64,000 bases of DNA from a virus (Duplodnaviria > Caudoviricetes). How positions within the stretch are numbered: position 1 is the stretch's first letter; each line of letters begins with the position of its first letter. The stretch covers positions 5,172-69,171 of IMG/VR virus record IMGVR_UViG_2932446441_000001; one strand, given 5' to 3'. A program made the position numbers and the translations under genes. A model generated the notes under the pieces. That model was not told where the DNA came from, did not search any database, and saw nothing but the letters and a program-made list of their open reading frames with translations. Shown here one piece after another: positions 4,936 through 51,970 of this stretch.

Positions 4936-6614
4936 TGTACCGCCACGACAACGACGCCTTGACGGTCATGGACTGGTTCTGTGGCGCTGGAGGCTCCAGC
5001 CAGGGCATGCACTCCATCCCTGGCGTCCGCATGGAACGGGCGGCGAACCATTGGGAGCGCGCGATCGAGTCGCACGCCGCGAACTTCCCGACCGTCGATC
5101 ACTACCGCGGCGACATCCGCGAAGCCCCGGTCGACAAGTGGCCCGTCACGGACATCTTCTGGGCGTCGCCCGAGTGCCCGCAGTGGTCCAACGCCCGCGG
5201 CAAGAAGCGCGACTTCGACGCCTCCCTCCAGGGCGACCTCTTCGACGGCTTCGGCCCGTCGGAGGAAGTCGAGCGCAGCCGGGCGCTGATGGAGGAAGTC
5301 CCCATGTACCTGCGCGGCGTGCAGGAGCGCGGCGGCCTGGTCAAGGCCGGCGTGGTCGAGAACGTCGTCGACGTCCGGGCGTGGGATCAGTGGGACCGGT
5401 GGCTCGGCGAGATCCGCAAGCTCGGCTACAAGACCCGCGTCATCGCCCTCAACAGCATGCACGCCGACCCGCGCACCGTGCACAAGGCGCCCCAGTCCCG
5501 CGACCGCCTGTACGTCGCCTACTGGCACGAGACCCTGGCCCGCACGCCCGACTGGGACAAGTGGCTGAGGCCGCGCGCCTGGTGCACCGGCTGCGACACC
5601 TGGGTGCAGGCCTTGCAGCGGTTCAAGCAGCCCGGGCGCGACATGGGCCGCTACCGCCAGCAGTACGTCTACCGCTGCCCGAACACCACCTGCCGCAACC
5701 AGGTCGTCGAACCCGAGACGCTCCCGGCCGCGGTTGCGATCGACTGGACGATCCCGGGCCAGCGGATCGGGGACCGGGCCAAGCCGCTCGCCGACAAGAC
5801 CCTCGCCCGGATCCAGGCCGGCCTCGACAAGTTCGCCCGGCCCATGGTCGTCCCCGCGGGCGGCACCTGGCGTAACGAGGCCACCCCCGCAGACGAGCCG
5901 ATGCCGACCCGCACCACCCGCGAGAACGACGGGCTGGCCATCCCGCCCTTCATCACCGAACTCCGAGGCGGCAGCAGTGTCCGGTCGGTCGGCGACCCGC
6001 TCGCGACGGTGGCGACCTCGGGCGGTCACCACGGCCTAGCTGTCCCTCCGCTGCTGATCCCGGTCGAGGGGCGGGACGGTAAGGAGCCGCGCTCAGCCAA
6101 CGACCCGCTGCGCACCCAGACCGCCCGCAACGAGACCGGCCTCGCCTGGCTCCCGTTCATGGTCACCATGCGCGGCGGCGGCGACCAGCTGCGCGGACGC
6201 TCCATCGGCGAGCCGGTCGGGACCGTGTCCGCCAACGGCAACCACCACGGCCTCGTGACCCCGGAGAACGTCGACTGGCAGTCGCTCCTGGTGCCGTACT
6301 ACGGCAACGGCCAGGCGCGCACCGTCCGCGAGCCCGTCGGCACGCTGTCCACCCGCGACCGGTACGCCCTCGTCCGAGGCGACGTCGACATCAACGACGT
6401 GCTGTTCAGGATGTTGGAGCCTCACGAGATCGGCCGGGCCATGAGCTTCGCCGACCAGTACATCGTGCTCGGCAACAAGCGGGAGCGCGTCCGCCAGTAC
6501 GGCAACGCCGTCACCCCCAACTGCGCCGAGGTCATCGTCGCCGCCCTCGTCGAAGCGATCACCGGCGAAGACCTCGACCGACACACCGAGCCGCAGTACG
6601 AGACCGCCGCGTGA
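4932..6614 (+). CDS. DNA (cytosine-5) methyltransferase
   Basis: Motif I DWFCGAGG, motif IV SPEC, motif VI VENV, motif VIII QSRDRLY, motif X QYGNAVTP; long repetitive variable region. Confidence 0.92.
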   Translation: MMYRHDNDALTVMDWFCGAGGSSQGMHSIPGVRMERAANHWERAIESHAANFPTVDHYRGDIREAPVDKWPVTDIFWASPECPQWSNARGKKRDFDASLQGDLFDGFGPSEEVERSRALMEEVPMYLRGVQERGGLVKAGVVENVVDVRAWDQWDRWLGEIRKLGYKTRVIALNSMHADPRTVHKAPQSRDRLYVAYWHETLARTPDWDKWLRPRAWCTGCDTWVQALQRFKQPGRDMGRYRQQYVYRCPNTTCRNQVVEPETLPAAVAIDWTIPGQRIGDRAKPLADKTLARIQAGLDKFARPMVVPAGGTWRNEATPADEPMPTRTTRENDGLAIPPFITELRGGSSVRSVGDPLATVATSGGHHGLAVPPLLIPVEGRDGKEPRSANDPLRTQTARNETGLAWLPFMVTMRGGGDQLRGRSIGEPVGTVSANGNHHGLVTPENVDWQSLLVPYYGNGQARTVREPVGTLSTRDRYALVRGDVDINDVLFRMLEPHEIGRAMSFADQYIVLGNKRERVRQYGNAVTPNCAEVIVAALVEAITGEDLDRHTEPQYETAA

Positions 6615-6702: not shown

Positions 6703-7599
6703 ATGGGCTACGAGCTCCGCCGCCAACTGCGCGAGGCGCTTGGGCCGGACATCACCGGCCTCCAGCGCGCCGTCGCGCTGGAGATCGCCGACGACGCCAA
6801 CGAGCGCACGCGGCGAAGCTGGGCCGCGCTCGAGGACCTGGCGCGCTGGACCGGCGCCAAGGATGGGAGCGTCGTCCGGAACGCGCTGAAGCGGCTTGCC
6901 GCGGCCGGCTGGGAGTTCCGGGTTCCGATCGGCAAGGGCAAGGACGGGCGCGCCCTGTACGCGGTGCCCGGCACTCGAATGACGTTCCTCGTACCCCACT
7001 TCGAAGGGGGAGCCACGGCTACCCCTTCCAGTGGCAAGGGAGAGCCCGGGCTACCTCTAGGGGGAGCCACCGCTACCCCTTCACCCCCACAAGGGGGAGC
7101 CACGGCACCTTCAGAAGGTGCCGTGGCTCCTTCTGAAGGTGCCGTGGCTCCCCCCTTCTCCTCATACTCCTCAGACTCAAAGAAGCTAGCTAGCCGGCAG
7201 CCCGCCGCCGATCTTGACTACGGGATCCCCGCCGACGCCCGCCCGCTCATCAACAGCCTCGCGGCAGCAGGCGTCAACGTCCGCTGGCCCTTCCGCGGCA
7301 ACGACTGGTTCCCCCTCCTCGCGCTCATCAAGAAGTCCGGCGTGCCCGCCATGGTCGACCACGCCCTCAAGGTCGCCGCCCGCACCCCGGTCGACTCCGC
7401 CCGCTACTTCATGCCGGGCTGGAGCGAACTCGCACCCATCCCGCCCGCCGACACCCCCCGGCCCGCACTCCACGCCGTGCCCGCCACCCGCTCCACCGCC
7501 GACCAGCGCGTCGCCCAGGGCCAGGCCCTCGCCGCCATGTTCCGCGAGCAGGAGCAGCGCGCCCTCGAGGCCGGCCACACCAACCAGGAGCCCGCATGA
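6703..7599 (+). CDS. Replication initiator-like protein (N-terminal HTH, internal iterons)
   Basis: Lies before helicase loader and helicase; LEDLARWTG...VRNALKRL HTH; DNA repeats in the low-complexity linker. Confidence 0.75.
   Translation: MGYELRRQLREALGPDITGLQRAVALEIADDANERTRRSWAALEDLARWTGAKDGSVVRNALKRLAAAGWEFRVPIGKGKDGRALYAVPGTRMTFLVPHFEGGATATPSSGKGEPGLPLGGATATPSPPQGGATAPSEGAVAPSEGAVAPPFSSYSSDSKKLASRQPAADLDYGIPADARPLINSLAAAGVNVRWPFRGNDWFPLLALIKKSGVPAMVDHALKVAARTPVDSARYFMPGWSELAPIPPADTPRPALHAVPATRSTADQRVAQGQALAAMFREQEQRALEAGHTNQEPA
7006..7155. repeat. Iteron cluster / putative replication origin inside the initiator gene
   Basis: GGGGGAGCCAC(G/C)GC at 7006, 7060, 7093; inverted copies at 7114-7130 and 7135-7155; perfect 17-bp inverted repeat 7096-7112/7114-7130. 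Confidence 0.75.
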
Positions 7600-7838
7600 C
7601 CCTCGCCGAAACCGCAGACCTGCTGTCCATCGCCGCCGCCATCGACAAACGCACCCTCGGCGAATCCGACGTCCGGGCCTGGCAGATGGTCCTCGACGAC
7701 ATCCCCTTCGAAGCCGCCCGCATCGCGCTGCGCGAGCACTACCGCGAGACGACCAAGCCCGCCATGCCCGCCGACATCGTCCGCCGCGCCAAGCCCACCA
7801 ACACCTACGAGTCCTACGCCGAGAAGGGGATCTTCTAG
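7596..7838 (+). CDS. Helicase loader/inhibitor-like small protein
   Basis: ET..LL...AA.D.R......AW..VL.D..F..A..A...HY......MPADI pattern; sits between initiator and helicase. Confidence 0.7.
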   Translation: MTLAETADLLSIAAAIDKRTLGESDVRAWQMVLDDIPFEAARIALREHYRETTKPAMPADIVRRAKPTNTYESYAEKGIF

Positions 7839-9151
7839 TGACGACCGACCTCGAGCCCGAGCTGCTCGAGCGGACACCGCCCCGCGACATCGCCGCCGAA
7901 CAGTCAGCCCTCGGTGCCTGCCTCATGTCGCGCAGCGCCTGCGCCGAAGTCCTCGCCACCGTCACCCCCGAGGCCTACTACAAGCCGCAGCACGCCACGA
8001 TCCACTGCGCCATCGCCGACCTGTTCATGGCCGGCGAGCCCATCGACCAGATCACCGTCGCCAAGTACCTGGGCGACCGCGGGGACCTCGCCAGGATCGG
8101 CGGCCAGGTCTACCTGTGGGAGCTCGTCCGGGCCGTACCCACACCGGAGAACGGCCCGTACTACGCCGAGGTCGTGCAGGACCGCGGCCTGCGCCGGTCG
8201 CTGATCGAACTCGGCAACCGCCTGGCGCAGATGGGCTACAGCCCGGACGGCGAAACCACCGAGATCATCGAGCGGGCCGTGACCCTGACCCGCGAACTGC
8301 GCGACCAGGGCCGCGAAGCGGAAGACCTGCCGCTGGAGGACATCCTCGACTTCGTCCAGCACGAGGACACCTACGACTGGATCGTGCCCGGCCTGCTCGA
8401 GCGCATGGACCGGCTGATCCTCACCGCCTCCGAAGGCGGCGGCAAGTCCGTGCTGCTGCGGCAGATGGCCGTCACCCTCGCCGCCGGCATCCACCCGTTC
8501 GACACGTGGAAGACCATCGACCCCATCCGGGTTCTCACCCTCGACTGCGAGAACAGCGCCAGCTCCAGCCGCCGCAAGTACCGCCCCCTGCTCGCTGCGG
8601 CGAACGACCTCGAGCAGCCCGTGCAGCGCGGCCAGTTCCACATCGAGTGCCGCCCCGAAGGCCTCGACCTCACCCGCGCCCAGGACCGCGCCTGGATGAT
8701 GCGCCGCGTCGAGAAGGCCAAGCCCGACCTGCTGATCATCGGTCCGATCTACCGCCTCCACGCGGGCGACCCCAACTCGGAGGAACTCGCCCGCAAGGTC
8801 AGCGTCGTCATCGACGAGGCCCGCGCCACCGCCGGATGCGCCGTCCTCATGGAAGCCCACAGCCCGCACCACAACGGCTTCGGACAGCACCGCACCCTGC
8901 GGCCCGTCGGCTCGTCGCTGTGGATGCGCTGGCCCGAGTTCGGCTTCGGCCTGCGCCCCGTCGAGGACGAGAAGTCCGCAGCGCCCGGCGACGGCGCCCG
9001 CGGCCGGCGGGTCATCCCGTGGCGCGGCATGCGCGACGAACGCGACTTCCCCGCCTTCATCAAGCAGGGCGACAAGTGGCCCTGGATCTCCTACAAGCCC
9101 ATCGACGCCGACCCCCTCACCGGCTACAGCGAAACGGGAGCGATCTGGTGA
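7838..9151 (+). CDS. Replicative helicase: DnaB N-terminal domain plus RecA-type (AAA_25-like) ATPase
   Basis: PPRDIAAEQSALGACL, YYKPQHATI, PIDQITV (DnaB-N); Walker A ASEGGGKS. Confidence 0.85.
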   Translation: MTTDLEPELLERTPPRDIAAEQSALGACLMSRSACAEVLATVTPEAYYKPQHATIHCAIADLFMAGEPIDQITVAKYLGDRGDLARIGGQVYLWELVRAVPTPENGPYYAEVVQDRGLRRSLIELGNRLAQMGYSPDGETTEIIERAVTLTRELRDQGREAEDLPLEDILDFVQHEDTYDWIVPGLLERMDRLILTASEGGGKSVLLRQMAVTLAAGIHPFDTWKTIDPIRVLTLDCENSASSSRRKYRPLLAAANDLEQPVQRGQFHIECRPEGLDLTRAQDRAWMMRRVEKAKPDLLIIGPIYRLHAGDPNSEELARKVSVVIDEARATAGCAVLMEAHSPHHNGFGQHRTLRPVGSSLWMRWPEFGFGLRPVEDEKSAAPGDGARGRRVIPWRGMRDERDFPAFIKQGDKWPWISYKPIDADPLTGYSETGAIW

Positions 9152-14996: not shown

Positions 14997-15407
14997 TCAG
15001 TGCGGCAGCACCTCGTCGAGCCACGCCTGAACAGGCCCGTACAGGCCGTAGGGCACCAGGCCCGGGATCTCCTCATGCCGCACCCAGGCGACCGTGTCGA
15101 GCTCCTCCTCATCGGCCACCGTCGCCGTCCCCGAGACGACCTCGCATGCCGTGTACGCCATGAACTTGCCCGTCTTCGGGTGAACGCGGTCGCCGATGTA
15201 CTTCACCGGTTTCACCGTCAGGCCGGTCTCCTCGAGCGTCTCCCGAACCGCCGCCTCTTCCGCGGTCTCACCGTCCTCGACGCCGCCGGCCGGGAACTGC
15301 CATGACAGCTCGCCCTCCTTGACGCGGCGGCGCACCATCAGGACACGCCCTCCGTCGGTGATGATGGCGGCGGAGATGCCGGGCTTCTCGGTGGTCGTCT
15401 CGGTCAT
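14997..15407 (-). CDS. Nudix hydrolase (canonical box)
   Basis: WQFPAGGVEDGETAEEAAVRETLEETGL fits GX5EX7REUXEEXGU; GGAGG RBS. Confidence 0.92.
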   Translation of the reverse strand: MTETTTEKPGISAAIITDGGRVLMVRRRVKEGELSWQFPAGGVEDGETAEEAAVRETLEETGLTVKPVKYIGDRVHPKTGKFMAYTACEVVSGTATVADEEELDTVAWVRHEEIPGLVPYGLYGPVQAWLDEVLPH

Positions 15408-16042
15408 GCAATCGCCTCCAGGGCGCTCAGGATGGGCGGGTAGATGCGGTCGGTGGGGATGAAGCGGCTGAGCTCCCTTATCGGAGCCCATGCCACGGCG
15501 ACGTTCTCGGAGGAATCCCCGTTGACCGCCTCGCCGTACACGTAATCGCAGATGAAGTAGTCGCACATTGCGCGCGTATAAGGGTGGAGTCGTTCACCCA
15601 GGTGTTCGCGGACCATGCAGTGCACCCCGGTTTCGTCCAGGGTTTCCCGCACGGCGACCTTCGACGCCGAGCCGCCCGGCTTCACGATGCCAGCCGGGAA
15701 CTGCCACGAGATGTCGTCGCCGTCCTGCCTGCATACGAGCAGCACGTCACCGTCTCGGCGGACCACTGCGATGGCCACCCGCAAGGCCTGCGCCTCCGGC
15801 TGGGGAGTCGCTATCCGCGACAAATGGATGAACCGCCGGCGCACCGCATCACCTGCCATTCCGTAGGTCGTGTCCAGAATGCGCTGCGTCTCTGGCTGGG
15901 GCACCATGCTCGGGTTCGCGCGCCACGACGCGACACTGCGAACAGACACCCCCAGCTTTCCTGCGAATGCTTCCTGGGTCATTTCGAATGCGTCCTGGAG
16001 CCGGGCCGCTTTCTCCCCGGTCCACCGCTGAACGTCGTCCAC
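15404..16042 (-). CDS. XRE-type HTH fused to a degenerate Nudix domain
   Basis: MTQEAFAGKLGVSVRSVASW HTH; WQFPAGIVKPGGSASKVAVRETLDETG. Confidence 0.85.
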   Translation of the reverse strand: MDDVQRWTGEKAARLQDAFEMTQEAFAGKLGVSVRSVASWRANPSMVPQPETQRILDTTYGMAGDAVRRRFIHLSRIATPQPEAQALRVAIAVVRRDGDVLLVCRQDGDDISWQFPAGIVKPGGSASKVAVRETLDETGVHCMVREHLGERLHPYTRAMCDYFICDYVYGEAVNGDSSENVAVAWAPIRELSRFIPTDRIYPPILSALEAIA

Positions 16043-18320: not shown

Positions 18321-18515
18321 GTGGCCCTGTTCCGCCGCACTCCCGAGCCGAAGGGCTACCGCCCCACCGAGGCCGAGGTGAAGGACGCTGCCGCCCAGTT
18401 GAACGCGGGTAGCCATCACGCCGCCTACGACCTGGCCGCCCACTCCGGCGACTACCAGCAGGACACGGCGATGCGGATCCTCGGCCACTGCATCGAGGAC
18501 GGGGACGGCTCGTGA
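18321..18515 (+). CDS. Small hypothetical protein
   Basis: GAGGAG RBS; MALFRR start. Confidence 0.65.
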   Translation: MALFRRTPEPKGYRPTEAEVKDAAAQLNAGSHHAAYDLAAHSGDYQQDTAMRILGHCIEDGDGS

Positions 18516-18700
18516 GCGCCCCTGCCCCGAACACGCACTTCCACTGCCCCGACTGCCACCCGCAGCTGCAGCGCGGTGTGACCCCGGCGATCTGCGGCGA
18601 GATCATCCCGCCTGTCGTCGTCGGCACCGGCCCGGAGCGGAAGTGTCGGCCCTGCAGGAGCCTGCTGCGCCAGCACAAGGCCAGCCACCGCCGCCGCTGA
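18512..18700 (+). CDS. Small Cys/His zinc-binding protein
   Basis: HFHCPDC...AICG...CRPC. Confidence 0.6.
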   Translation: MSAPAPNTHFHCPDCHPQLQRGVTPAICGEIIPPVVVGTGPERKCRPCRSLLRQHKASHRRR

Positions 18701-18795
18701 CCGGCTGTCCGCGGCCCGCGTCGCGCACGCGGGCCAAGAAGAACTGGCGCAGCACCACCCCATTGCACACCCCCACGAGTCCTGGAAGGACAGCC

Positions 18796-20136
18796 ATGAG
18801 CAGCGGATACCGTTCCTGGGAGGAGCGTGACGCCGACGTAGCGAAGACGAAGGCCGAGACCGCCCGCATCAAGGCGGAGGCCGACGCGGCGGCGCAGGCA
18901 GCCGAGTCTGCCGCGGCTGCGACCGAGACCGCGAAGCTTGCCGAGAAGGTTAAGCAGGCGCGGCTGCAGAAGCAGCTCGGCGACGTCAAGGAGACCGCCA
19001 AGGACGACAAGGTTGCCCGGAAGGCGAAGCGGCGCGAGCAGCGCGACGAGGACGGCGCCACCTTCAAGGTTCTCGTCAACGTGGTCATGGCGCTCGGCCT
19101 GCTCGCCGCCCTCCCCGCCCAGATCTCCTACTTCCTCGGCCTGCACCGCAAGGACGACAAGGATCCCGGCCCGGCGTGGACACTCACGCCGATCCCGTTC
19201 TTCCTGGAACTCCTCGCCTGGGTGGGCGTCATGGGTACCCGATGGGCGCACCGCAAGGGCCTGCCACGGTGGCCGTTCTGGATCCTGACCGCGACGCTCG
19301 CTTCCCTCGCCGGCTGGATCAACTACGCGCACGGCGTCACCGAGTACGGCCCGGTCGCCGGCTACGCCCTCGCTGCGACGTCCATGATTGGCCCGCTGCT
19401 GGCGGAGGTCCGCCAGTTCCTGGAGTCGAAGGCCGCCGAGGACGGGCGCGATCTGAAGCAGCGCGCCAAGGACCGGCGCGCGGCCCGGGAGAAGGCGAAG
19501 GCCGACCGTGAACGGGAGCAGGTCGAGCGGGCCGAGGACGAGCGTCGCAAGAAGCTGTTCCCGAGCGAGTTCGAAGAGTACGAGCGGATCATGGCCGCCT
19601 ACCCCACCGGCGGCATCACCCGGGCTGCGGCATGGGAGCAGGCGTGGGACACGATGCACGCCCTTCCCCTCGCCGTAACGGCCGGCAGCATGGCCGCCCG
19701 CGAGGTAGCCCGGGAAGCCGTCGAGGAGCTCCTGCGGGATGCCGACCGCAGCCCCGAAAGCATCGCCGTGGACCTGTTCCTCGCGAAGGCATTCGACCCG
19801 AACGGCGGCGACGACGGACCCGCAGGAGCTACCCCAGGAGGCGGATCCAGTGGGCCTACGGGGGGAGGGTCACGGGCCCGTCGTGCGGAGCCCTCCGAAG
19901 GGCCTACAGCCCTTGGGCGTAAAGGGAAGCAGGGCTCTGGCCGTACCGCCGCGAAGACCCCCGAGAAGCCGCTCGATCCGGCTCACATCGAGAAGGTCCG
20001 CAAGCTCGTCGAAGCCCTCGGAGACGTTGACCGGCTCTCCGCCCGCAAGGTCCGCGAAGTGATCGGCGGCGGCAGCAACGAGTACGCCGTCCGCCTCCGC
20101 AACCACGTGAAGAACGAAGCCGCATCCGCCAACTGA
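18796..20136 (+). CDS. Spd-like (SpdB2/DUF2637-type) membrane protein
   Basis: About 4 TM segments flanked by coiled coils; C-terminal HTH-like LSARKVREVIGGGS..A..L; upstream of traB. Confidence 0.7.
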   Translation: MSSGYRSWEERDADVAKTKAETARIKAEADAAAQAAESAAAATETAKLAEKVKQARLQKQLGDVKETAKDDKVARKAKRREQRDEDGATFKVLVNVVMALGLLAALPAQISYFLGLHRKDDKDPGPAWTLTPIPFFLELLAWVGVMGTRWAHRKGLPRWPFWILTATLASLAGWINYAHGVTEYGPVAGYALAATSMIGPLLAEVRQFLESKAAEDGRDLKQRAKDRRAAREKAKADREREQVERAEDERRKKLFPSEFEEYERIMAAYPTGGITRAAAWEQAWDTMHALPLAVTAGSMAAREVAREAVEELLRDADRSPESIAVDLFLAKAFDPNGGDDGPAGATPGGGSSGPTGGGSRARRAEPSEGPTALGRKGKQGSGRTAAKTPEKPLDPAHIEKVRKLVEALGDVDRLSARKVREVIGGGSNEYAVRLRNHVKNEAASAN

Positions 20137-20159
20137 ACCCACCTGTCAGGAGTCTGAAC

Positions 20160-20636
20160 ATGAACGTCACCCTTCGCCGTATCGCCGTCTCCACCACCGC
20201 GACCGTCGCCCTCCTCGGAGGCGCCACCGCCACCGCGTCCGCCGCGTCCCCGGAGCACGAGGCGACCGTCGTCGCCATCGCCAAGGCCGAGACCCCGCCG
20301 GGCGGAACGGACGGCATCACCAACGGCCTCACCCCCGACCACGGCGGCATGGGCTCGCAGCTGCAGAACCCCGTCAACGGGCAGGTACCGGCCGGCTACC
20401 CGCAGCAGATCCAGACGCAGGCCTCGGGCGGCGCGATCGGCGCCGGGGTCGTCGCGATCCTCGTCCTCGGGATCATCGTGTTTGTCCGGGTCCGCGGCAA
20501 GGACATCAAGGTCGGCGACGCGGTCGTCGTCACTCTGTTCGGCATCGCCGTCTCCGGCACGGTCATCGGAGCCCTGGGTGACCAGCTCACCGACTCCGCC
20601 GTCGCCTCTCTCGGCAGCATGCTCGGCGGCCTCTGA
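20160..20636 (+). CDS. Membrane protein resembling small AICE/plasmid spread proteins
   Basis: Signal-like N-terminus; GVVAILVLGIIVFVRVRGKDIKVGDAVVVTLFGIAVSGT two-TM hairpin. Confidence 0.65.
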   Translation: MNVTLRRIAVSTTATVALLGGATATASAASPEHEATVVAIAKAETPPGGTDGITNGLTPDHGGMGSQLQNPVNGQVPAGYPQQIQTQASGGAIGAGVVAILVLGIIVFVRVRGKDIKVGDAVVVTLFGIAVSGTVIGALGDQLTDSAVASLGSMLGGL

Positions 20637-20696
20637 GCCACCCACCCGCGGGGCCCGCACCGGGCCCCGCCCCTCACTCAGGAAGGAAGCAGGCCA

Positions 20697-22940
20697 GTGG
20701 CCACCGAGATCGAGCCCCAGTACGCCGAGCAGCAGCCGCAGGAGGAGACGGCCGAGCCGACTCGCGGCGAGCGCATCAAGGCCGCGTTCGCCGAGCAGCG
20801 CAGCAACGCCGGTGCCCGCACCCGCGACTGGCTGGCAGGCGGCGACCTGGACGAGGCCGACGTCATCCATCTGGCCACCGAGACGAAGCAGCGCAAGCAC
20901 GCCGAGCAGGTTGCCCAGCAGGAGCGGCGCGCTGCCGAGGCCCGCGGGCGTTTCCACGTGGCCAAGGCGCAGGCCGAAGACAGCGAGACCAACAGGGGGC
21001 ACGGCAACGTCGCCGCTCTGGCCGGACGAGCCGCCCAGGAAGAGGCCAGGCTCGAAGCCCTCCGCGCCACCCCCGTGCTGCCGCCCACCGACCGGGAGAT
21101 CAACGCGGCCCGCAACGGCAAGAGGGCCGGACGGGCGGCGATCCTCGCCGGCGGGACTCTGGGCGGACTGTCCGCCTTGGGCACCGCCGTCGAGCAGGCC
21201 GCCACCGGGCAGCCCATGCTGCTTGCCGTCGTCACCACCGGGGCGAGCCTCGGTTGGTATCTGATCTCCCGTCCCTTCGTCCGAAGCCAGGCCGGTGAGG
21301 TCCCTTTCGGGATGACCCCGGCCAGCCTGCCCGCCACGTTCCAGGCGGAGCCGGCCGGGGGAGCAGCGCCGATCGTCGGTGGGAACGTCGTCATGTCCGT
21401 CGAGCAGCTGCCCGAAGGCGCCAAGCCGCACCCGCTGCGGAACGCGCACACGCCTGACCAGCTCGCCCAGTGCGTCCTGCTGGCCGCCCGCGCCGAGAAC
21501 GTGCCGATCGTCGAGGTGTCGGACGTGACGCGGCAGCCGTGGGGCTGGCAGTGCACGGTCCGCGTCAGCGAAGGCACACCCGAGGCGATCATCGAGAAGA
21601 GCGGCGACCTCGAGACGAAGTTCGACCTGCCCACCAACGGTGTCCGGCCGCAGCCGATCAGGGCCCGCCGCGCCTGCGCCATCCTCCGCCTTGTCGATGG
21701 CGACCCCTTCGCTACCGCCCCCGGCATGCCGTACCGAGCCCCCAAGTCCCTGTCGATCACCGACCGGTTCCGGATCGGCACCAGCGTCGGCGGCGACCCC
21801 CTGGAGGTATCCCTCGCCGGCGTGATGGGCCTGTGGGTCGCGGCGTCCGGCGGCGGCAAGACCGGCATCCTGCAGGCCCTCGCCGAGGGCACCACAGCGT
21901 GCCGGGACAACATCACCATCGACCTCGACCCGTTCGGTGACGGCCTCGAAGACCTCGGGGACGCCGTGCGGATCACCGCCCGCACGAACGAGCAGATCGA
22001 AGCCGTCCTGTTGTTCTTCCTGGTCATGGCCAAGGCGCGCGCCCGGCTGAGGGCGAAGCTCGGCATGGGTAAGAAGTGGAAGGCCAGCCCCGAACACCCC
22101 GCTGTCACGATCTTCTTCGACGAGTTCCCGAAGGCCACGGAGCTGGCCAAGAAGCTGGCGTTCGACCTGCTTCTCGTCGGCCGCAAGGAGCTCATCGAAG
22201 TCGAGATCGCCTCCCAGGGCGGGCAGAAGGGCTACCTCGGCGAGAACTTTGCACAGATGGTCGCCCTCAAGGCCGTCGGCCCGTGCAAGGTCGGGGACAC
22301 CCGCGCCGTGTTCGGTGACGGGGCCGTCAAGGAGGGCTACCTGCCGCACAAGCTCTCCCCGGCCACCGACACCGACCCCAAGGACGCCGGTCACATCTTC
22401 ATTCAGGGCGTGCCCGGCATGGCCGACGAGCCGATCGAGTACGCCGTTCACGAGACGCCGTCCGCGGTGCTGCGTCAGCTCGCCCAGGAGCGCCTGGAGG
22501 CCGGGCTGCTCGAACCGGACCAGGACAGCCTCGACGCGATGAAGGGTGTCGACCTGCCCGAGTACGTCGAGCCGGTCTGGGACAACGAGGGCAACCTCAA
22601 GAAGCCGGCGCCCGTCGACCTGCTGTCGTGGGAGCAGCTGTTGAAGCTGTGCGGTGCCGAGCCGCCTGCCGGCGCGGAGCTGGCGGATGGCCCCGAACGG
22701 GCTGTGATCGAGGACGCGGTCGCGGTCATGGAGAAGTCGGGCGTCGATCGGATGAAGACCGAAACGCTGCTCCTGGCACTCCGCGACTACGACCCCGATG
22801 CCTACGGCGAGATGGAAGTCGAGGCGTTCAAGGCCCTGATGAGTAAGGCGGGCGCTGGAGGCCCGATCACGCTGGGCCAGATCGGCGAGGAGAAGAACCC
22901 GCGCGGCTTCAAGCGGGATCGACTCCGCCACCTGCTGTGA
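20697..22940 (+). CDS. traB: TraB-like FtsK/SpoIIIE-family conjugative DNA translocase
   Basis: N-terminal coiled coil and 2 TM segments; Walker A AASGGGKT; Walker B VTIFFDE; GRKELI..EIASQ; C-terminal wHTH-like domain ending NPRGFKRDRL. Confidence 0.82.
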   Translation: MATEIEPQYAEQQPQEETAEPTRGERIKAAFAEQRSNAGARTRDWLAGGDLDEADVIHLATETKQRKHAEQVAQQERRAAEARGRFHVAKAQAEDSETNRGHGNVAALAGRAAQEEARLEALRATPVLPPTDREINAARNGKRAGRAAILAGGTLGGLSALGTAVEQAATGQPMLLAVVTTGASLGWYLISRPFVRSQAGEVPFGMTPASLPATFQAEPAGGAAPIVGGNVVMSVEQLPEGAKPHPLRNAHTPDQLAQCVLLAARAENVPIVEVSDVTRQPWGWQCTVRVSEGTPEAIIEKSGDLETKFDLPTNGVRPQPIRARRACAILRLVDGDPFATAPGMPYRAPKSLSITDRFRIGTSVGGDPLEVSLAGVMGLWVAASGGGKTGILQALAEGTTACRDNITIDLDPFGDGLEDLGDAVRITARTNEQIEAVLLFFLVMAKARARLRAKLGMGKKWKASPEHPAVTIFFDEFPKATELAKKLAFDLLLVGRKELIEVEIASQGGQKGYLGENFAQMVALKAVGPCKVGDTRAVFGDGAVKEGYLPHKLSPATDTDPKDAGHIFIQGVPGMADEPIEYAVHETPSAVLRQLAQERLEAGLLEPDQDSLDAMKGVDLPEYVEPVWDNEGNLKKPAPVDLLSWEQLLKLCGAEPPAGAELADGPERAVIEDAVAVMEKSGVDRMKTETLLLALRDYDPDAYGEMEVEAFKALMSKAGAGGPITLGQIGEEKNPRGFKRDRLRHLL

Positions 22941-22960
22941 CCGTTACGCGAAGTATGCAC

Positions 22961-23123
22961 CCCTGATCAGGGCCTGCTCAGCCCTGCTCACGCCACAAAC
23001 CCGCAGGTCACAGCTGCTCAGCCTGCTGCTCACCGCCTGCTCAACCTCTGCTCTGAGCAGCACCTGAGCAGGCGCCTGAGCAGCCCTGACCTGCGGCTTC
23101 TCCCGCTGAGCAGTGCTGAGCAG
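22961..23123. repeat. clt-like cis-acting locus: mirror-symmetric CTGCTCA/TGAGCAG array
   Basis: CTGCTCA at 22974, 22984, 23014, 23026, 23037; TGAGCAG at 23054, 23065, 23077, 23107, 23117; CCGCAGGTCA 23001 and TGACCTGCGG 23087; starts 20-35 bp after the traB stop. Confidence 0.8.
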
Positions 23124-23163
23124 GCAGAACAAACCACCACAAACTAGAAACGGAGCCCGACTC

Positions 23164-23550
23164 ATGCCCAAGACGTGGCAGCCCCACCAGGAGAAGAAGT
23201 TCGTCCGCGAACTCAAGCTCGGACAGCCCTACTACGTGATCCGCGACCTCGAAACCCGCGGCGCCCCGTTCGAGGACGCCCAGCGGTACGAGGAGCACGT
23301 GTTCACCGAGCGGTCCCGCCTCACCGGAACCCCGCGTACCGACGGCGGCATGACCGCCACCCAACTCTGCAGGAACTGGGGCCCGGTCTACGACACGCCG
23401 CCGCGCAACATGCGGCGCAGCGGTGAGCCCGGCCCGCAGGTCGGCGCCCCCCTCGGCCGCGACTACACCGCCTACCTCGACGAAGCCGAACTCCGCGGCC
23501 TCGACAAGAGGCTCCGCGACACCAGCGACCCCCGCACCCGCCGCATCTAG
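23164..23550 (+). CDS. Hypothetical protein
   Basis: GGAG RBS; good codon usage. Confidence 0.7.
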   Translation: MPKTWQPHQEKKFVRELKLGQPYYVIRDLETRGAPFEDAQRYEEHVFTERSRLTGTPRTDGGMTATQLCRNWGPVYDTPPRNMRRSGEPGPQVGAPLGRDYTAYLDEAELRGLDKRLRDTSDPRTRRI

Positions 23551-23640
23551 CTGAGCCGGGGCGCCCCTCCCGCCTGCCAGCAAAGCAGGGGCGCCCCGTT
23601 CTACCCCACCCGATCAAGACCAGACGAGGAGATCACCATC

Positions 23641-23814
23641 ATGACCGACGAGCAGTGGGAGGCCCAGAACAGCAGCCTCTCCCCGGACGAAGCCCACGCG
23701 CGCGGCCTGTGCTGGTGTTGCGCCGGCAACCGCGTTCTCTACACCGCGTTCGGCGGCGTGCAGCGCAAGGTCGACTGCCACGAATGCGGCGGCACTGGCA
23801 AGGCCCAGAGGTGA
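23641..23814 (+). CDS. Small zinc-finger protein (CWCC...CHECGGTG)
   Basis: GAGGAG RBS; 57-aa ORF read manually. Confidence 0.65.
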   Translation: MTDEQWEAQNSSLSPDEAHARGLCWCCAGNRVLYTAFGGVQRKVDCHECGGTGKAQR

Positions 23815-23816
23815 CC

Positions 23817-24314
23817 ATGGCCGTCGCCGCCCCGGCCGTCGACACGAGCCTCGACCTCGACGCGCGGCTCGCCCTCACCCTCGCGGTCATGGACGAACGC
23901 TGCACCCTCGCCGTCCTCGCCGTCGAAGTGAACACCGCCCACCTGCCCGTCGTTGAGCCGCTGCCCGAGATCACCGCGCCGCTCACTGTCCCCCTCGCGC
24001 CGGCGCCCAGCCCCTACAGCACCCCCCTCGCCGCTCTGCTCCACCGGGCGAGCCTCCGACTGGAGGCCGCCGGCTGGTGTACCGGTGCGCTGCGCGACGA
24101 GCAGGGCGCCGCCTGCCTCATCGGCCACACCCGTGCCGAAGCCGCAAGCCGCGACCAGGCCGACGACGCCTGCGCCCTCCTACTGGAAACCATCCGCCGC
24201 GACTTCACCGACGCCGAAACCATCCCCAGCTGGAACGACGCACAGCGCAACCCGCGACTGCCCCTCATCTACCTCGGCCGCGCCGCCGACCTCGCCCACG
24301 CCCGCAACCTCTGA
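23817..24314 (+). CDS. Hypothetical protein (DUF6197-like)
   Basis: GWCTGAL....G.ACLIG...IPSWND. Confidence 0.6.
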   Translation: MAVAAPAVDTSLDLDARLALTLAVMDERCTLAVLAVEVNTAHLPVVEPLPEITAPLTVPLAPAPSPYSTPLAALLHRASLRLEAAGWCTGALRDEQGAACLIGHTRAEAASRDQADDACALLLETIRRDFTDAETIPSWNDAQRNPRLPLIYLGRAADLAHARNL

Positions 24315-24325
24315 GGAGAACCCCC

Positions 24326-24604
24326 ATGTGCGACACCATTGAAGCCCCCGACTTCCTGACCGGGACCATCACCCCCGGCACCTACGCCGAGAACGACCGG
24401 AGGGAGCTCCGCGACCTCGCCGTGCACCTACTCGTCGACAGCCAGCGCCTCCAGCGCGCCGGCTGCGCCAGCCGCATGCACCTGCTCCTCCACGTCCACC
24501 CTGCCATCGACCACGCCGTCAAGGTCGGCTGGGACCGTGACGACATCCACGCCGCCGCCGACCGCGAGTACGGGCAGTGGCTCATCGACAACGCCGGGAG
24601 GTAG
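24326..24604 (+). CDS. Hypothetical protein
   Basis: GAGGAG RBS. Confidence 0.6.
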   Translation: MCDTIEAPDFLTGTITPGTYAENDRRELRDLAVHLLVDSQRLQRAGCASRMHLLLHVHPAIDHAVKVGWDRDDIHAAADREYGQWLIDNAGR

Positions 24605-24609
24605 GACCG

Positions 24610-24843
24610 ATGACCGAACCCGCATGGTGGCCGCAGATCCTGTCCGCTACGTCCCTGCGTCGTCAGGCGGCGGGCATGCTCCTCGCCCAAGCCACCCCTA
24701 GCGTCGTGCGCGGCACGCTGCGGCTGGAGTTCCCCCGGACCGGCCTCGTCACGGCCTGGCGGGACAGCCGGGCCGAAGCAGCACTGGAAGGCGCGCTCGC
24801 CCACTACGGGTGGGCCATGCCGATCGAGGTGACAGAGGCCTGA
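24610..24843 (+). CDS. Small hypothetical protein
   Basis: AGGA RBS; followed by a terminator. Confidence 0.6.
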   Translation: MTEPAWWPQILSATSLRRQAAGMLLAQATPSVVRGTLRLEFPRTGLVTAWRDSRAEAALEGALAHYGWAMPIEVTEA

Positions 24844-24854
24844 CCGCAACACAG

Positions 24855-24885
24855 AGCCCCCGACGAACCCAGCGTCGGGGGCTTT
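24855..24885 (+). terminator. Intrinsic terminator ending the transfer operon
   Basis: AGCCCCCGACG-loop-CGTCGGGGGCT followed by TT. Confidence 0.75.
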
Positions 24886-24994
24886 GCCGTGACCGTATCG
24901 GGCGAATCCGGGTCACGGAATGAACACTTCACCTTCACGCTCACCCCAGTCGCGCGCATGATGCACCCCACGCACACTGATCCATGGGGGGACC

Positions 24995-25408
24995 ATGCGC
25001 CGTACCGTCACTGCCGTTGCCGCCTGCCTGCTCGCCGTAGGCGCAGTCGGCTGCTCAAAGTCCCACGACGAGAACGTCAAGGGCTGCACCGCCGCGCTCG
25101 CTGAGCAGACCGGAGGCGATCCTGCGGACACGCCGACCGTCAGGGAAGCGGAGGAGAGGGTCGATGCACTCGACAAGACGCTCGCGGGCATGGTCCGGTC
25201 CGGGTACGAGGGCGTGGCCAGGGACGCGCTCGACACGGTGGAGAAGAAGACCAAGGAGGGCGGGAAGGACCGGCCGGAGGCGTGCGAGCCGCTCTCGAAG
25301 GACGACTACACCGCGCTGCTGACGGCCAAGGCGATCGATGGTCTCGGTTGGACGGACAACGACGGCCAGTTCGACAAGCTCAAGATGGTGGAAAGCCTCG
25401 GCGACTAG
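24995..25408 (+). CDS. Lipoprotein
   Basis: MRRTVTAVAACLLAVGAVGC lipobox. Confidence 0.8.
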   Translation: MRRTVTAVAACLLAVGAVGCSKSHDENVKGCTAALAEQTGGDPADTPTVREAEERVDALDKTLAGMVRSGYEGVARDALDTVEKKTKEGGKDRPEACEPLSKDDYTALLTAKAIDGLGWTDNDGQFDKLKMVESLGD

Positions 25409-25477
25409 CCTTGCTGTGGTCGTGGCGAGGCCCCGCACCGAATCGTCCTCCGGGCGGGGCCGTCGTCGTGCGGTGCA

Positions 25478-25720
25478 TTAGTCGTACAGCGACCGCCCGG
25501 CACGCTGCACTGCCTGCCGAAACCCTGCCTCGACCGCGCCGTCGTCGATGATGAGCAGTTGGCCGGGTGGGCAGCACGGGCTGGCTCGCAGGGTGATGTG
25601 GTCGTAGCCGCGTTCGTCGATGACGGCCTGGATCTCGTCGAAGCGGCCGGGCTCGCAAAGAACAGTGCGGTTCGCGTCGCCCTCGATCTGCGCCCAGAAC
25701 GCCTCGTCTGCGTTGCTCAT
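25478..25720 (-). CDS. Hypothetical protein
   Basis: ATGA coupling with the upstream ORF. Confidence 0.6.
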   Translation of the reverse strand: MSNADEAFWAQIEGDANRTVLCEPGRFDEIQAVIDERGYDHITLRASPCCPPGQLLIIDDGAVEAGFRQAVQRAGRSLYD

Positions 25721-26037
25721 CCGGTCTTCTCCTCGCTGCTCACCGGGTGCTCCTGGAGCGTGGCCACCTCGACCCGCAGATCATGGATCACGCGCACGAA
25801 CTGCTCCGTTGTGTGCGTGGCCAAGTGCTCGCGCAGCGCTGCCTCCGTCTGCTGGGCCTCCGTGAGACAGGCTCGATGCGCGATCGAGGTGACAGCTTCG
25901 CTGAAATCCCGGGCAGCCGGGTCGGCTGTGACGCCGAGCTCGGCGATCCGGTCGACGCTGGGCGGCGGGACCTCGTGGCGCCAGCCGCATTCGAGCGGGC
26001 ACAGGTAGCGGGTCGTTCCGGGCGCCGGGCTATTCAT
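25717..26037 (-). CDS. Hypothetical zinc-binding protein
   Basis: RYLCPLECGW.H...LREHLATH. Confidence 0.65.
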   Translation of the reverse strand: MNSPAPGTTRYLCPLECGWRHEVPPPSVDRIAELGVTADPAARDFSEAVTSIAHRACLTEAQQTEAALREHLATHTTEQFVRVIHDLRVEVATLQEHPVSSEEKTG

Positions 26038-27229: not shown

Positions 27230-27392
27230 CCTCCACGTCATCCCGCTGAACGACCTGGTCGAACACGACACGAGCGTCGGCGGCAGCTGTGCATGCGGTC
27301 CAACTGATAGGCCGGTCAAGCGAGACGACGGGTCCATCGGCTGGGTAGCTGTGCATCACAGCCTTGACGGGCGCGAACCGAACGAGAGCTGA
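27222..27392 (+). CDS. Small His/Cys protein
   Basis: HVIPLNDLVEH...CACGP...HHSLDGRE; overlaps both neighbours. Confidence 0.65.
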   Translation: MTDLHVIPLNDLVEHDTSVGGSCACGPTDRPVKRDDGSIGWVAVHHSLDGREPNES

Positions 27393-28939
27393 TGGCGACC
27401 GCGGTCCGCGCGCCCAGTTACCTCGACGGCCTGGACGCCGAAACCTTCGACCTGACGGCCTACCTCGCCCAGTTCGACGCCGAGATCCTCGACGACCCGG
27501 AAGGCCGCCGAACCCTCACCCGCCTCAACCCGCTGCTGTTCGGCCTCGTCTATCTGCGCCACCACCTCCGCGACAGTGAGGGTCGCATCACCTTCGGGGA
27601 CGCGCACCTCGACTGGTGCCGCGCCGCACGCAAATGGGTACGCCCGCCCACCCGGCCGGCCGTGGACCGCGACGCCTACATCGCCCCCCGCAACATGGGG
27701 AAAAGCACCTGGTGGTTTTTGATCCTGCCGATGTGGGCCGCCGCCCACGGGCACGTCAAGTTCGCTGCGGCGTTCGCGTCGTCCGCCACCCAGGCGGAGA
27801 CCCACCTGTCCACGTTCAAGGCGGAGATCGACCGCAACGAGCTGCTGCGCCGCGATTTCCGCACCCTGTGCACACCGGCCAAGCGCCCATCCGGCGCCAA
27901 CGTGGCGGACACCCAGTCGATGTACATCGCCGAGTCCGGGTTCGTGTTCGCCGCCCGCGGCATCGACTCGTCGAACCTCGGCATGAAGGTCGGCGAGCGC
28001 AGGCCCGACCTCATCCTGTGTGACGACATCGAGCCTGATGAGAGCAGTTACAGCCTGGATTTGGCGCGGAAGCGGCGCACCACTCTGATCGACTCGATTC
28101 TGCCCCTCAATGTTTACGCGCGTGTCGTCATATCCGGCACCGTGACAATGCCCGGCAGCATCGTGCATCAGCTCGTCAAGCATGCCCGCGGCGTGGAGAC
28201 GGCAGACTGGATCCAAGAGGAAGGCTTCCGAGCCCACTACACCCCGCCGATCATCAAACGGGACGACGGCACCGAGCGCAGCGTATGGCCAGCGAAGTGG
28301 CCTTACCCGTACCTGACGTCCATAGCCCACACCCGCAGCTATGCAAAAAACATGGCCAACGATCCGATGGGCGCAAACGGCGATCTGTGGACGCCGGACG
28401 ACTTCCGCTACCCGGGCGACGAGGGCGTGGACCCGATCACGCACATGATGCTGTCGATCGACCCCGCGGTAACGGCGAAGAAGGGCAGCGACTTTACGGC
28501 GATGGCGGTGGTGTCGTGGTCGGCGCAACGTCGCCGGTGCACCGTGCACGCGGCCACGGCCATGAAGATCCAGCCGGGCCCGCTACTGCGGGAGCGGGTG
28601 CTGGCGCTGCTCGATGAGTTCCCGGAGATCGGGCTGATCCTGATCGAGGTGAATCAGGGGCAGGACACGTGGCAGGCGATCCTGCACGACATGCCGGTGA
28701 AGGTGAAGCCGGTGTCGCAGACGGAGAACAAGTTCGTCCGCGCCGAGGGGGTCCTGCATCACTACCAGCGTGGCCGGGTGATCCATGCGCGGCGGCTGGT
28801 CGAGTTGGAGCAGCAGATGTGCGCGTTCCCGAAGGCGCCGCACGACGACCTGGTGGATGCGGTGGGGTCGGCGATACGACGCTTCATCCCCAACAAGCCG
28901 AGGGAAGCATCAAAGGCCACAAAGGCAAGTTACCTTTGA
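27392..28939 (+). CDS. terL: Terminase large subunit
   Basis: Walker A APRNMGKST, Walker B LILCDDIE, nuclease SIDPA...SDFTA, HDDLVDA. Confidence 0.95.
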   Translation: MATAVRAPSYLDGLDAETFDLTAYLAQFDAEILDDPEGRRTLTRLNPLLFGLVYLRHHLRDSEGRITFGDAHLDWCRAARKWVRPPTRPAVDRDAYIAPRNMGKSTWWFLILPMWAAAHGHVKFAAAFASSATQAETHLSTFKAEIDRNELLRRDFRTLCTPAKRPSGANVADTQSMYIAESGFVFAARGIDSSNLGMKVGERRPDLILCDDIEPDESSYSLDLARKRRTTLIDSILPLNVYARVVISGTVTMPGSIVHQLVKHARGVETADWIQEEGFRAHYTPPIIKRDDGTERSVWPAKWPYPYLTSIAHTRSYAKNMANDPMGANGDLWTPDDFRYPGDEGVDPITHMMLSIDPAVTAKKGSDFTAMAVVSWSAQRRRCTVHAATAMKIQPGPLLRERVLALLDEFPEIGLILIEVNQGQDTWQAILHDMPVKVKPVSQTENKFVRAEGVLHHYQRGRVIHARRLVELEQQMCAFPKAPHDDLVDAVGSAIRRFIPNKPREASKATKASYL

Positions 28940-51326: not shown

Positions 51327-51970
51327 GCCTGCTCCTTGCTGGTGGTGGTCTGAGGCCATGGGGTGGCGGCTGCTGCGGCGCGGGTGACGGCGTCCCAGAA
51401 CTCGCGGGCAGCCGCATCAGGCTGGTAGTTCGGCCCGATGGTGATGTGGCCGTCGGGGTGGATGCCGACGATGAGCGTGCCGTCGTCCTCCCGTAGGGAC
51501 AGCGCGAACTCGGGTTCAGCCTCGGCGGCAGAGGCGGGCTGGTGTGGCACCGCGCCTCGTGCGCTGTCGTTCCACACGGTGCGGCCAGATGGGCCGCTGC
51601 GTGCACTGGCATGCCAGTCGCCGTACTCGCCGCCCTTGTGCCCGGCGCGGAACGCGCACGTGTAGAGGCCGTCTTCGTTGTCGATGCGCGCTGTGCAGTC
51701 CGGCAGATCGGCGTGTGCGCTACTAATGTGCGCGTCAACCCGGTTGCGGGGCGGCGCTTCAACACAGTGCGGGCATTGCTCGCGGATGGCGTCGTCGGCC
51801 TCGTCTGTACGCGGAGCGTGGGGGCAGACCTTGCAGTGGTCGCACTGCTCGGCGCCATCAGGGCAGTCGCAGCGTGGGCAGCGGCGGGCGGCCGGGCACT
51901 GGATCGGCGTACCCCAGCCGTCGGTGTGCACCTCGCCGCCGCACTCCCGCCGCGTGCACGGGCCGCTCAC
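51323..51970 (-). CDS. Cys/His-rich hypothetical protein
   Basis: Multiple CxxC and C..H clusters; coupled to neighbours. Confidence 0.65.
   Translation of the reverse strand: MSGPCTRRECGGEVHTDGWGTPIQCPAARRCPRCDCPDGAEQCDHCKVCPHAPRTDEADDAIREQCPHCVEAPPRNRVDAHISSAHADLPDCTARIDNEDGLYTCAFRAGHKGGEYGDWHASARSGPSGRTVWNDSARGAVPHQPASAAEAEPEFALSLREDDGTLIVGIHPDGHITIGPNYQPDAAAREFWDAVTRAAAAATPWPQTTTSKEQA

Follow-up and report, generated by a model that had tools for sequence, protein, structure and literature searches.

A mirrored repeat array behind a TraB/FtsK-like translocase gene of a Streptomyces prophage as a candidate clt-type docking locus

What is the role of an array of short repeats, set in two facing arms, that fills the space between a gene for a DNA translocase and the next gene of a Streptomyces prophage? 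The question concerns a stretch of 64,000 nucleotides (hereafter, the window), namely bases 5172-69171 of the 69,171-bp IMG/VR provirus record IMGVR_UViG_2932446441_000001, in which the array spans positions 22963-23123. A preliminary description of this DNA, made from the letters of the window, had suggested that the array is a site for two-way loading of a TraB-type pump; that the element is a tailed prophage and no plasmid is a point absent from that description. In Streptomyces, conjugation relies on one FtsK-like pump together with a clt site. Because the clt of Streptomyces conjugative plasmids is the nearest known system, we consider it likely, though by no means certain, that the array is a clt-type docking locus of the TraB/FtsK-like pump encoded just upstream. 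The layout itself is known from conjugative plasmids; here it lies within a tailed phage.

The first repeat copy begins 23 bp past the stop codon of the translocase gene, and the array fills the 224-bp intergenic region, with a ribosome-binding site and an ATG directly downstream (Table 1). The preliminary description had placed five CTGCTCA and five TGAGCAG heptamers, together with a pair of decamers (CCGCAGGTCA/TGACCTGCGG, hereafter the core pair), symmetrically about position 23048.5. The mirror placement was reproduced: the outer coordinates of each of the five heptamer pairs and of the core pair sum to 46097 (for the core pair, 23001 + 23096, derived from the located positions). The count of five plus five, however, did not hold, since the left arm has two further copies; because of these, at 22963 and 23048, the array has seven left and five right copies and is an imperfect mirror. 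Every copy in either arm is oriented toward the array centre. Successive copy starts are apart by 11, 10, 30, 12, 11, 11, 6, 11, 12, 30 and 10 bp, a spacing of about one helical turn, and both 30-bp gaps house the core decamers. Multiple short repeats of 7-9 bp, as in a clt site, are present as 12 CYGMTCR copies, far over chance. Counted on both strands, the window has 21 exact heptamers where 9.08 (standard deviation, 2.87) are expected, and 10 of the 21 fall inside 150 bp; since none of 100 shuffles attained 21, chance is ruled out as the source of the array. A window-wide skew of the KOPS kind was considered and rejected: the heptamers outside the array number 11, lie on both strands, and compare with 9.08 expected for the whole window. 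One pair of them (25051/25102) lies within a coding region and has nothing special about it. No further exact copy of the core was found elsewhere in the window.

The array is conserved in close relatives. A single-protein search gave 15 IMG/VR loci and 19 loci on Streptomyces genome contigs with 68-88% protein identity (loci are numbered with the prefix L), and the window and these 34 relatives form a nearly gapless alignment of 35 sequences. In 34 of the 34 relatives the array is at the same place, that is, at or next to the 3' end of the tra-type gene. Among 347 aligned repeat sites, 169 read CTGCTCA, 35 CTGATCA and 30 CCGCTCA; G3 is retained at 340 and T5 at 337 of the sites, giving C-Y-G-M-T-C-R as the consensus. 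The additional copy at 22963 can be aligned in 30 of the 35 sequences and reads CTGATCA in 22 of those. Both the core (GCAGGTCA...TGACCTGC) and the A+C-only tail (GAACAAACCACCACAAAC) are almost invariant in the 35-sequence alignment and in a second alignment (A1), in which GCAGGTC of the left core is invariant. The first gene past the array differs in L005, L007, L009 and L011-L013, and the array is retained there. The virion genes also vary: a terminase of the window type was found in one of the 15 IMG/VR relatives, a phrog_9 terminase lies 3-7 kb downstream in three other relatives (two with a portal gene, of which L055 also has a capsid gene), and the window-type large terminase was not found with the window query in five module-bearing Streptomyces genomes. 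Because the virion gene sets differ among relatives, the module is regarded as a mosaic unit across different tailed prophages. Two further observations concern these relatives. The GATC-bearing variant CTGATCA is site-specific, occurring at arm positions L2, R4 and R1 (15, 14 and 14 of 35 sequences; window sites 22984, 23065 and 23117) and at the 22963 copy, and is rare elsewhere; the phage has a C5 methylase gene (4509-6614). In addition, a contig of Streptomyces acidicola (NZ_VMNX01000001.1) carries two translocase-array modules about 90 kb apart (L036 and L037), whose arrays are identical in the alignment; they may stem from a duplication or belong to two related prophages.

An inverted arrangement of this kind could reflect a nucleic-acid structure, either a transcript hairpin (terminator, attenuator or RNase III site) or a DNA cruciform. 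The predicted RNA fold of 22941-23164 is indeed strong (-107.1 kcal/mol, against -71.9 with a standard deviation of 4.4 for shuffled sequences; z -7.9), but it is not diagnostic because any inverted repeat would give the same. In 16 sequences, 86.0% of mirror pairs are paired, compared with 83.9% after shuffling; none of 500 shuffles matched this value, and 12 pairs are altered on both sides. The pattern of variation nevertheless speaks against pairing. In the window, all 35 heptamer positions and all 10 core positions are complementary to their mirror partners, whereas the spacers pair at the level of chance (10 of 38 positions), in agreement with the preliminary description, which calls them mostly not complementary; across sequences the spacers match at 6-16 of 31-38 positions. 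At the variable heptamer position, pairs in the 16 sequences were broken in 5, 9 and 6 cases and compensated in 2, 1 and 2. Among 172 mirror pairs over 35 loci, 114 involve a non-consensus heptamer, and the same variant stands on both arms in 5 of these 114 (4.4%), compared with 31 of 452 non-mirror pairs of the same locus (6.9%). At heptamer position 4, 43 mirror pairs are mismatched as C/A and 7 are A/A; the A variant occurs at L2, R4 and R1, and the mirror partners retain C. The two extra left copies have no partner, and the array has neither a T tract nor a terminator match. A search of Rfam gave no credible family, only two chance matches to miRNA families (E ~0.7). The hairpin or terminator reading was rejected on the alignments, and a role as a nucleic-acid structure is in our view very unlikely. 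Because the mirror variants are uncompensated and the A variant is site-specific, selection appears to act on the sequence and position of each copy, without pairing. The protein-binding geometry that had been preferred over a hairpin is consistent with this behaviour of the array.

Which protein could read the copies? The gene before the array had been called traB from its letters, and the fold matches of the motor and tail models agree that it encodes a TraB/FtsK-type motor with a C-terminal winged helix. Its Walker A (SGGGKTG, K388) and Walker B (FFDEFP, D475 and E476) motifs are present, and these three residues are invariant in two protein alignments (A2 and A3). For the AlphaFold2 (AF2) model of aa 230-747 (pLDDT 95.5), the top PDB fold matches are the motor domains of E. 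coli and P. aeruginosa FtsK (E 1.9e-14 to 3.9e-13; TM score 0.63-0.69 on the target), and TcpA and EccC/EssC rank next; the model has the RecA-like FtsK motor fold with its alpha and beta domains. No Pfam family was found for the translocase to E = 10, and no PDB sequence match. Among 20 relatives scanned, the Pfam cut-off for FtsK_SpoIIIE (PF01580) is passed by two (P0073, 26.3 bits; P0136, 29.5 bits), and five have sub-threshold matches (P0020, P0035, P0048, P0056 and P0118). As placed by its predicted fold and its relatives, the translocase is a divergent branch of FtsK/SpoIIIE-TraB. Its own family is small, with 247 of 1.84 billion representatives found at E <= 0.001. Relatives of about 860 aa have an additional FtsK-gamma domain at the N terminus (P0035, P0048, P0056 and P0073; the pFP1/CP108056.1 branch). 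With regard to the N-terminal membrane association of Streptomyces TraB, two hydrophobic stretches around aa 146-196 of the translocase were read by eye.

The tail of the AF2 model consists of a helix, a strand, two helices, a beta-hairpin and a helix. Its best fold matches are winged-helix domains (ORC/Cdc6, Z 7.0; H1, Rex, PadR, MarR, TubR and TcpK, Z 5.0-5.9), and the winged-helix matches given by Foldseek are weak (E >= 0.07). In predicted fold, the protein therefore ends in a C-terminal winged helix as Streptomyces TraB does. Three relatives (P0107, P0112 and P0128) combine a different, unrecognised ATPase part with the same C-terminal winged-helix domain, at 38-45% identity to the window pump; the tail domain has been shuffled between motor types. 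Relatives of P0107 and P0112 were sought in viral contigs, and none was found.

More distant homologues keep the architecture and change the repeated word. Streptomyces-plasmid homologues with less than 60% identity come from 44 records, 42 of which are Streptomyces. The translocases of pFP1 (NC_006912.1, Streptomyces sp. FQ1) and CP108056.1 are 31-32% identical to that of the window over aa 243-737, and about 220 bp of non-coding DNA past their stop codons hold the same core (CCGCAGGTCA...TGACCTGC) with a mirror array of the word CTCTAC|GTAGAG around the central palindrome CTCTACGTAGAG. The traB gene of pFP1 is reportedly functional. The array of the plasmid locus L021 reads GTTGTCC|GGACAAC, those of L022 and L025 read CTGATCGG|CCGATCAG, and L024 has a weaker version. 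In a reverse search, viral contigs were scanned for CCGCAGGTCA followed after 70-100 nt by TGACCTGC; this gave at least 119 stretches, 80 of which were examined. An upstream open reading frame matching the profile hidden Markov model (HMM) of the family, with its stop codon 23-60 bp before the core, is present in 25 of the 80, and all 25 carry repeated words; most of the other core-pair loci lack repeats and are probably inverted repeats due to chance. Beside the same core, and often with the same A+C-rich tail, we found the words CTGCTCA, CTGCTCG, CCCCTCG, CGTGAC, CCGGAC and CGGTACG. Five loci (L061, L076, L084, L093 and L099) have clear arrays (e.g. GCGAATA seven times, CCGCTAC five times) and no long upstream open reading frame matching the family HMM in the orientation examined; their arrays may follow other translocase types or broken genes.

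The core pair is thus conserved independently of the heptamer word. This fits the separate reader, or second factor, that had been supposed for it in the preliminary description, and the core probably has such a reader. Because they are invariant across subfamilies, the core and the tail must serve something common to all of them, either a second reader or a structural role. An A+C-only tract (AACAAACCAYCACAAAC) also follows the arrays of very different subfamilies (L066, L074, L096, L109 and L111), at a fixed distance from the ribosome-binding site of the next gene. As a guess, this tract might keep the ribosome-binding site unstructured beside a strongly self-pairing array.

These positions bear on the possibility that the array serves mainly in transcriptional control of the operon from 23164, with a repressor or the pump tail as an autoregulator bound to it, and has no part in DNA transfer. 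Helically phased repeat arrays are typical of cooperative repressors. The phasing seen here would suit such a role, as would the position of the array in the 224-bp intergenic region directly before the ribosome-binding site and ATG, and the A+C-rich tail at a fixed distance from the ribosome-binding site in several subfamilies. However, a scan of 22500-23600 for one promoter type, the sigma-70-like one, found none; exchange of the downstream gene leaves the array beside the translocase gene; and the same architecture follows the translocase in plasmids with different downstream genes. We regard transcriptional control as the main function as distinctly unlikely.

If the pump reads the heptamers, the word would be expected to go with the part of the pump that contacts it. 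Two loci, L062 and L110, resemble the window pump in the C-terminal domain only (35-42% over aa 670-746) and have the word CTGCTCG; a motor that is 39-41% similar but has another tail (ending GGARGYRLDTIK) goes with the word CGTGAC. The repeat word thus goes with the C-terminal domain of the pump, not with the motor. A close pair of loci, L109 and L116 (81% protein identity; 80% DNA identity over 2.9 kb; arrays at about 1963-2140), is informative in the same respect. All others in the subfamily have NPRG, but L109 has NPNG; in its array, CCCCTCG/GTCCTCG replaces CTGCTCG/GTGCTCG in about eleven copies. One GAGCAC directly past the right core is unchanged in both loci; because it is unchanged amid the concerted change of the word, it may be part of the conserved core and not of the repeat set.

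The preliminary description had proposed that covariation of the heptamer with helix 3 of the winged helix be looked for in homologues. We scored the residue aligned with T725 (P-x-T-L-G) against heptamer position 7 in 48 distinct arrays. Where the residue is T or A, position 7 is A in 32 arrays, G in 3 and mixed in 2; where it is P, S or G, position 7 is G in 8 and mixed in 1; where it is Q, position 7 is G in 1 and mixed in 1. On a tree of the motor only (43 rows, after the Q and mixed rows had been dropped), the residue class changes five times and the word class eight times, and five of five independent pairs have the same direction (median two-sided p 0.0625). A wing residue, not one of helix 3, thus covaries in all five pairs, and L109 changes in a concerted manner. 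The residues of helix 3 have no simple link to the repeat word within the close subfamily. The covariation between the T725 position and heptamer position 7 is suggestive and not significant, and the T725-position residue is not the sole determinant of the word.

Several observations weigh against the docking-locus reading. The covariation rests on few events (five pairs, p 0.0625), and word changes outnumber residue changes by eight to five. L001, L004 and L009 have T at the wing residue and yet G at position 7, and the concerted change of L109 is a single event. Because the DNA coding for the tail adjoins the array, the association is inflated by co-inheritance of the cassette, although the change of all copies in L109 is not explained by linkage alone. 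The covarying residues are in the wing, whereas pSVH1 TraB reportedly reads its repeats with helix 3 (PMC3583192). The window protein does not reach the gathering score of PF01580, and FtsK gamma is outside the top 50 fold matches of the tail. Two of the eight plasmid loci (L020 and L023) have no clear array, and a homologue in the Streptomyces BE-cluster phages (34% identity; Spilled) has neither intergenic space nor an array after the gene. Finally, docking leaves the invariant core and A+C-rich tail unexplained, and the array is also in the 5' region of the next operon, which is compatible with a regulatory role.

The heptamers could instead be read by another protein of the module (for example the 128-aa, DUF6197 or Cys-rich protein; Table 1) as an operator or as an accessory or partition-like complex, with the pump tail reading something else, perhaps the core. 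Homologues of the 128-aa and DUF6197 proteins each follow the array in 14 of the 15 IMG/VR relatives, and they also follow it in other subfamilies (L074, L109, L115 and L120); for the 128-aa protein, this is the case in 12 of the 80 core-pair loci. The core is invariant across subfamilies, and so are parts of the tail (the NPRG/RGY wing), and three word changes occurred without a change of the wing residue. Furthermore, there is a precedent in the SpdA-type proteins of Streptomyces plasmids, which bind short palindromes of their own (PMC4170104). On the other hand, the first gene past the array has been swapped in L005, L007, L009 and L011-L013 with the array kept, L062 and L110 keep the word with the tail domain despite a different motor, and the word change of L109 coincides with a substitution in the pump wing (a comparison that covered the pump and array of L109 and L116). 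We consider a reader of this kind unlikely.

Table 1. Positions in the window of the array, the translocase and neighbouring genes
Feature	Positions	Strand	Basis or remark
TraB/FtsK-like dsDNA translocase, 747 aa	20697..22940	+	phrog_12531 'FtsK/SpoIIIE-like', E 1.1e-67
C-terminal winged-helix domain (predicted), aa 658-747	22668..22937	+	AF2 pLDDT 94.3; wing bears T725 and R736, whose counterparts in relatives covary with the word
Left arm, five CTGCTCA	22974..23043 (starts 22974, 22984, 23014, 23026, 23037)	+	Words located by script
Right arm, five TGAGCAG	23054..23123 (starts 23054, 23065, 23077, 23107, 23117)	-	CTGCTCA on the minus strand
Left core decamer CCGCAGGTCA	23001..23010	+	Word location
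Right core decamer TGACCTGCGG	23087..23096	-	Conserved part is the octamer TGACCTGC
Extra left-arm copy CTGATCA	22963..22969	+	Within the palindrome CCCTGATCAGGG
Central 13-bp palindrome CTGCTCTGAGCAG	23048..23060	.	Inward left copy CTGCTCT (23048-23054) abutting the first TGAGCAG
A+C-only tail GAACAAACCACCACAAAC	23127..23144	+	Between the array and the GGAG ribosome-binding site (23152-23155)
NUDIX hydrolase gene	15404..16042	-	Pfam NUDIX, E 8.9e-15; upstream of the transfer-like operon, opposite strand
Small Cys-rich protein (CxxC...CxxC), possible zinc ribbon	18512..18700	+	Read from the sequence
Membrane protein, SpdB2-like by layout	18643..20136	+	Charged, coiled-coil-like N-terminal part and four hydrophobic segments
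158-aa membrane or secreted protein	20160..20636	+	Signal-peptide-like start; hydrophobic C-terminal segments
128-aa protein	23164..23550	+	First gene past the array; ATG with ribosome-binding site
DUF6197 protein	23655..24314	+	Pfam DUF6197, E 4.8e-15

The genes around the module are those of a phage. The window contains genes for a large terminase (27392-28939; phrog_38, E 5.3e-64), a portal protein (phrog_104, E 1.1e-57) and MuF-like, scaffold, gp10-like and tail-tube proteins, as well as an amidase and a tyrosine integrase (coordinates 57938-58987). Carriage by a conjugative plasmid or an actinomycete integrative conjugative element, as for known clt sites, was accordingly not found; the carrier is a provirus with virion genes and an integrase. 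The early genes comprise a PDDEXK nuclease, an HNH protein, the C5 methylase, a helix-turn-helix protein (6703-7599) and a DnaB-like helicase (7214-9151). DNA similarity to deposited phages was looked for over 20000-26000 of the window, and none was found.

Phased direct and inverted short repeats resemble iterons and plasmid centromeres, and the array has this layout; it could accordingly be a replication origin or a partition centromere. Streptomyces theta plasmids, including pFP1, have repA and iteron loci with direct and inverted repeats (PMC3583192). Here, however, the phage replication genes (those for the DnaB-like helicase and the helix-turn-helix protein) are about 14 kb away, family scans showed no ParA- or ParM-type gene next to the array, and the array follows the translocase alike in integrated prophages, circular plasmids and linear plasmids. 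An origin or a centromere is a highly improbable identity for it.

The genes next to the translocase form a transfer-like operon. The membrane protein encoded upstream probably has its true start internally, near 18796. No Pfam match was found for it; tblastn related it weakly (28% over 127 aa, E 2e-6 to 4e-6) to the product of the DUF2637 gene that precedes the translocase gene in pFP1. Its SpdB2-like label follows from its layout, and DUF2637 is presumed to be linked to SpdB2. A detectable homologue of this protein is present in 8 of the 15 IMG/VR relatives, and one of the 158-aa protein in 7 of 15. Family scans gave no match for the 158-aa protein, the 128-aa protein or the small Cys-rich protein. 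In plasmid CP108056.1, an annotated 'RRQRL motif-containing zinc-binding protein' adjoins the translocase, and its homology to the Cys-rich protein of the window is not established. In 5 of the 15 relatives the translocase has a NUDIX homologue upstream; the NUDIX gene of the window is, we presume, possibly Pif-like. NUDIX and GntR genes are both companions of Tra genes in actinomycete integrative conjugative elements, pSAM2 for example, and in the window a GntR-family gene (63087-63353, minus strand) lies beyond the integrase. Apart from the module, a gene for an NAD-dependent epimerase/dehydratase (49647-51359, minus strand) has an apparent intein interruption: its Pfam Epimerase match is split in two, with LAGLIDADG_3 and Intein_splicing matches between the parts.

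How might a docking locus of this form work? In the mechanism that we propose, the twelve inward C-Y-G-M-T-C-R copies, spaced by about one helical turn, would be read by the winged-helix tails (aa 658-747) of a hexameric pump, mainly via the wing (T725 and R736), and the pump would thereby assemble on the DNA of its own element. The CCGCAGGTCA...TGACCTGC pair and the A+C-rich tail would be separate conserved parts with a different reader. What is pumped would be the genome of the phage, which would pass between hyphal compartments or cells without virions. A more elaborate and rather unlikely possibility is that the array is a two-way loading platform, in which each inward arm would seat one TraB-like hexamer, the two in opposite orientations, and a conserved factor would clamp CCGCAGGTCA/TGACCTGC around the six inner repeats; the motors would then feed both arms of the excised, covalently closed genome, in the form of a loop, through hyphal cross-walls or into an adjacent hypha. 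If this is true, tailed Streptomyces phages would have a second way to spread, independent of virions, and the platform would suggest how a ring-shaped pump handles circular double-stranded DNA uncut.

The array family bears on the loading of the pump, the direction of movement and the passage of closed circular DNA. It forms a natural series, in which the two inward arms, the invariant core pair and the A+C-rich tail make up a fixed architecture and the words vary with matched changes of the pump tail, and the series makes recognition and polarity accessible to swaps of wing residues and words. The module recurs regularly in many tailed Streptomyces prophages whose virion gene sets differ, which points to a possible particle-free spread of phage genomes through the mycelium; if true, such spread would alter the view of how phages disseminate and lysogens arise in filamentous bacteria. 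Full-text searches, whose coverage is incomplete, turned up no account of mirrored arrays or TraB/clt modules in prophages, so this absence weighs little. Thoma et al. 2015 (PMC4447253) mention only SpdB2 homologues, on the phages phiC31 and VWB.

Among known systems, the closest are the clt sites of Streptomyces plasmids. The clt of pWTY27 is 175 bp long, with 16 bp within traA and 159 bp after it, and contains 7-bp direct repeats and inverted repeats; it gives a TraA footprint, and transfer needs both traA and clt (PMC3583192). The TraB of pSVH1 recognises 8-bp clt repeats via its C-terminal winged helix (PMC3583192, PMC4447253). Like the clt of pSVH1, pWTY27, pJV1 and pIJ101, the prophage array lies at or after the 3' end of a tra-type gene, extends over about 150-175 bp and consists of multiple 7-9-bp repeats together with inverted repeats. 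Unlike them, it resides in a tailed prophage and has two inward arms (7 + 5) around a palindrome, with an invariant 10-bp core pair and an A+C-rich tail that are common to subfamilies with different words. Furthermore, the covarying residues of the prophage family are in the wing, whereas helix 3 is reported to be used by the TraB of pSVH1. The cassette of pFP1 and CP108056.1 is similar in its homologous translocase, the DUF2637 membrane protein before it, the same core and a mirror array, and differs from the window in its word, CTCTAC/GTAGAG. The Streptomyces elements pZL12/phiZL12 and pFP4 are reported both to conjugate and to form phage particles (PMC4170104, PMC3583192); they are episomal, whereas the element of the window is a provirus that is integrated and encodes a tyrosine integrase, and the likeness is one of description only. 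Finally, the system resembles FtsK gamma and KOPS in that a hexameric motor of FtsK fold with a winged-helix tail is combined with oriented short DNA words; however, KOPS are chromosome-wide with a skewed polarity, whereas the words of the window are confined to one 160-bp array and the remaining 11 are at the level of chance.

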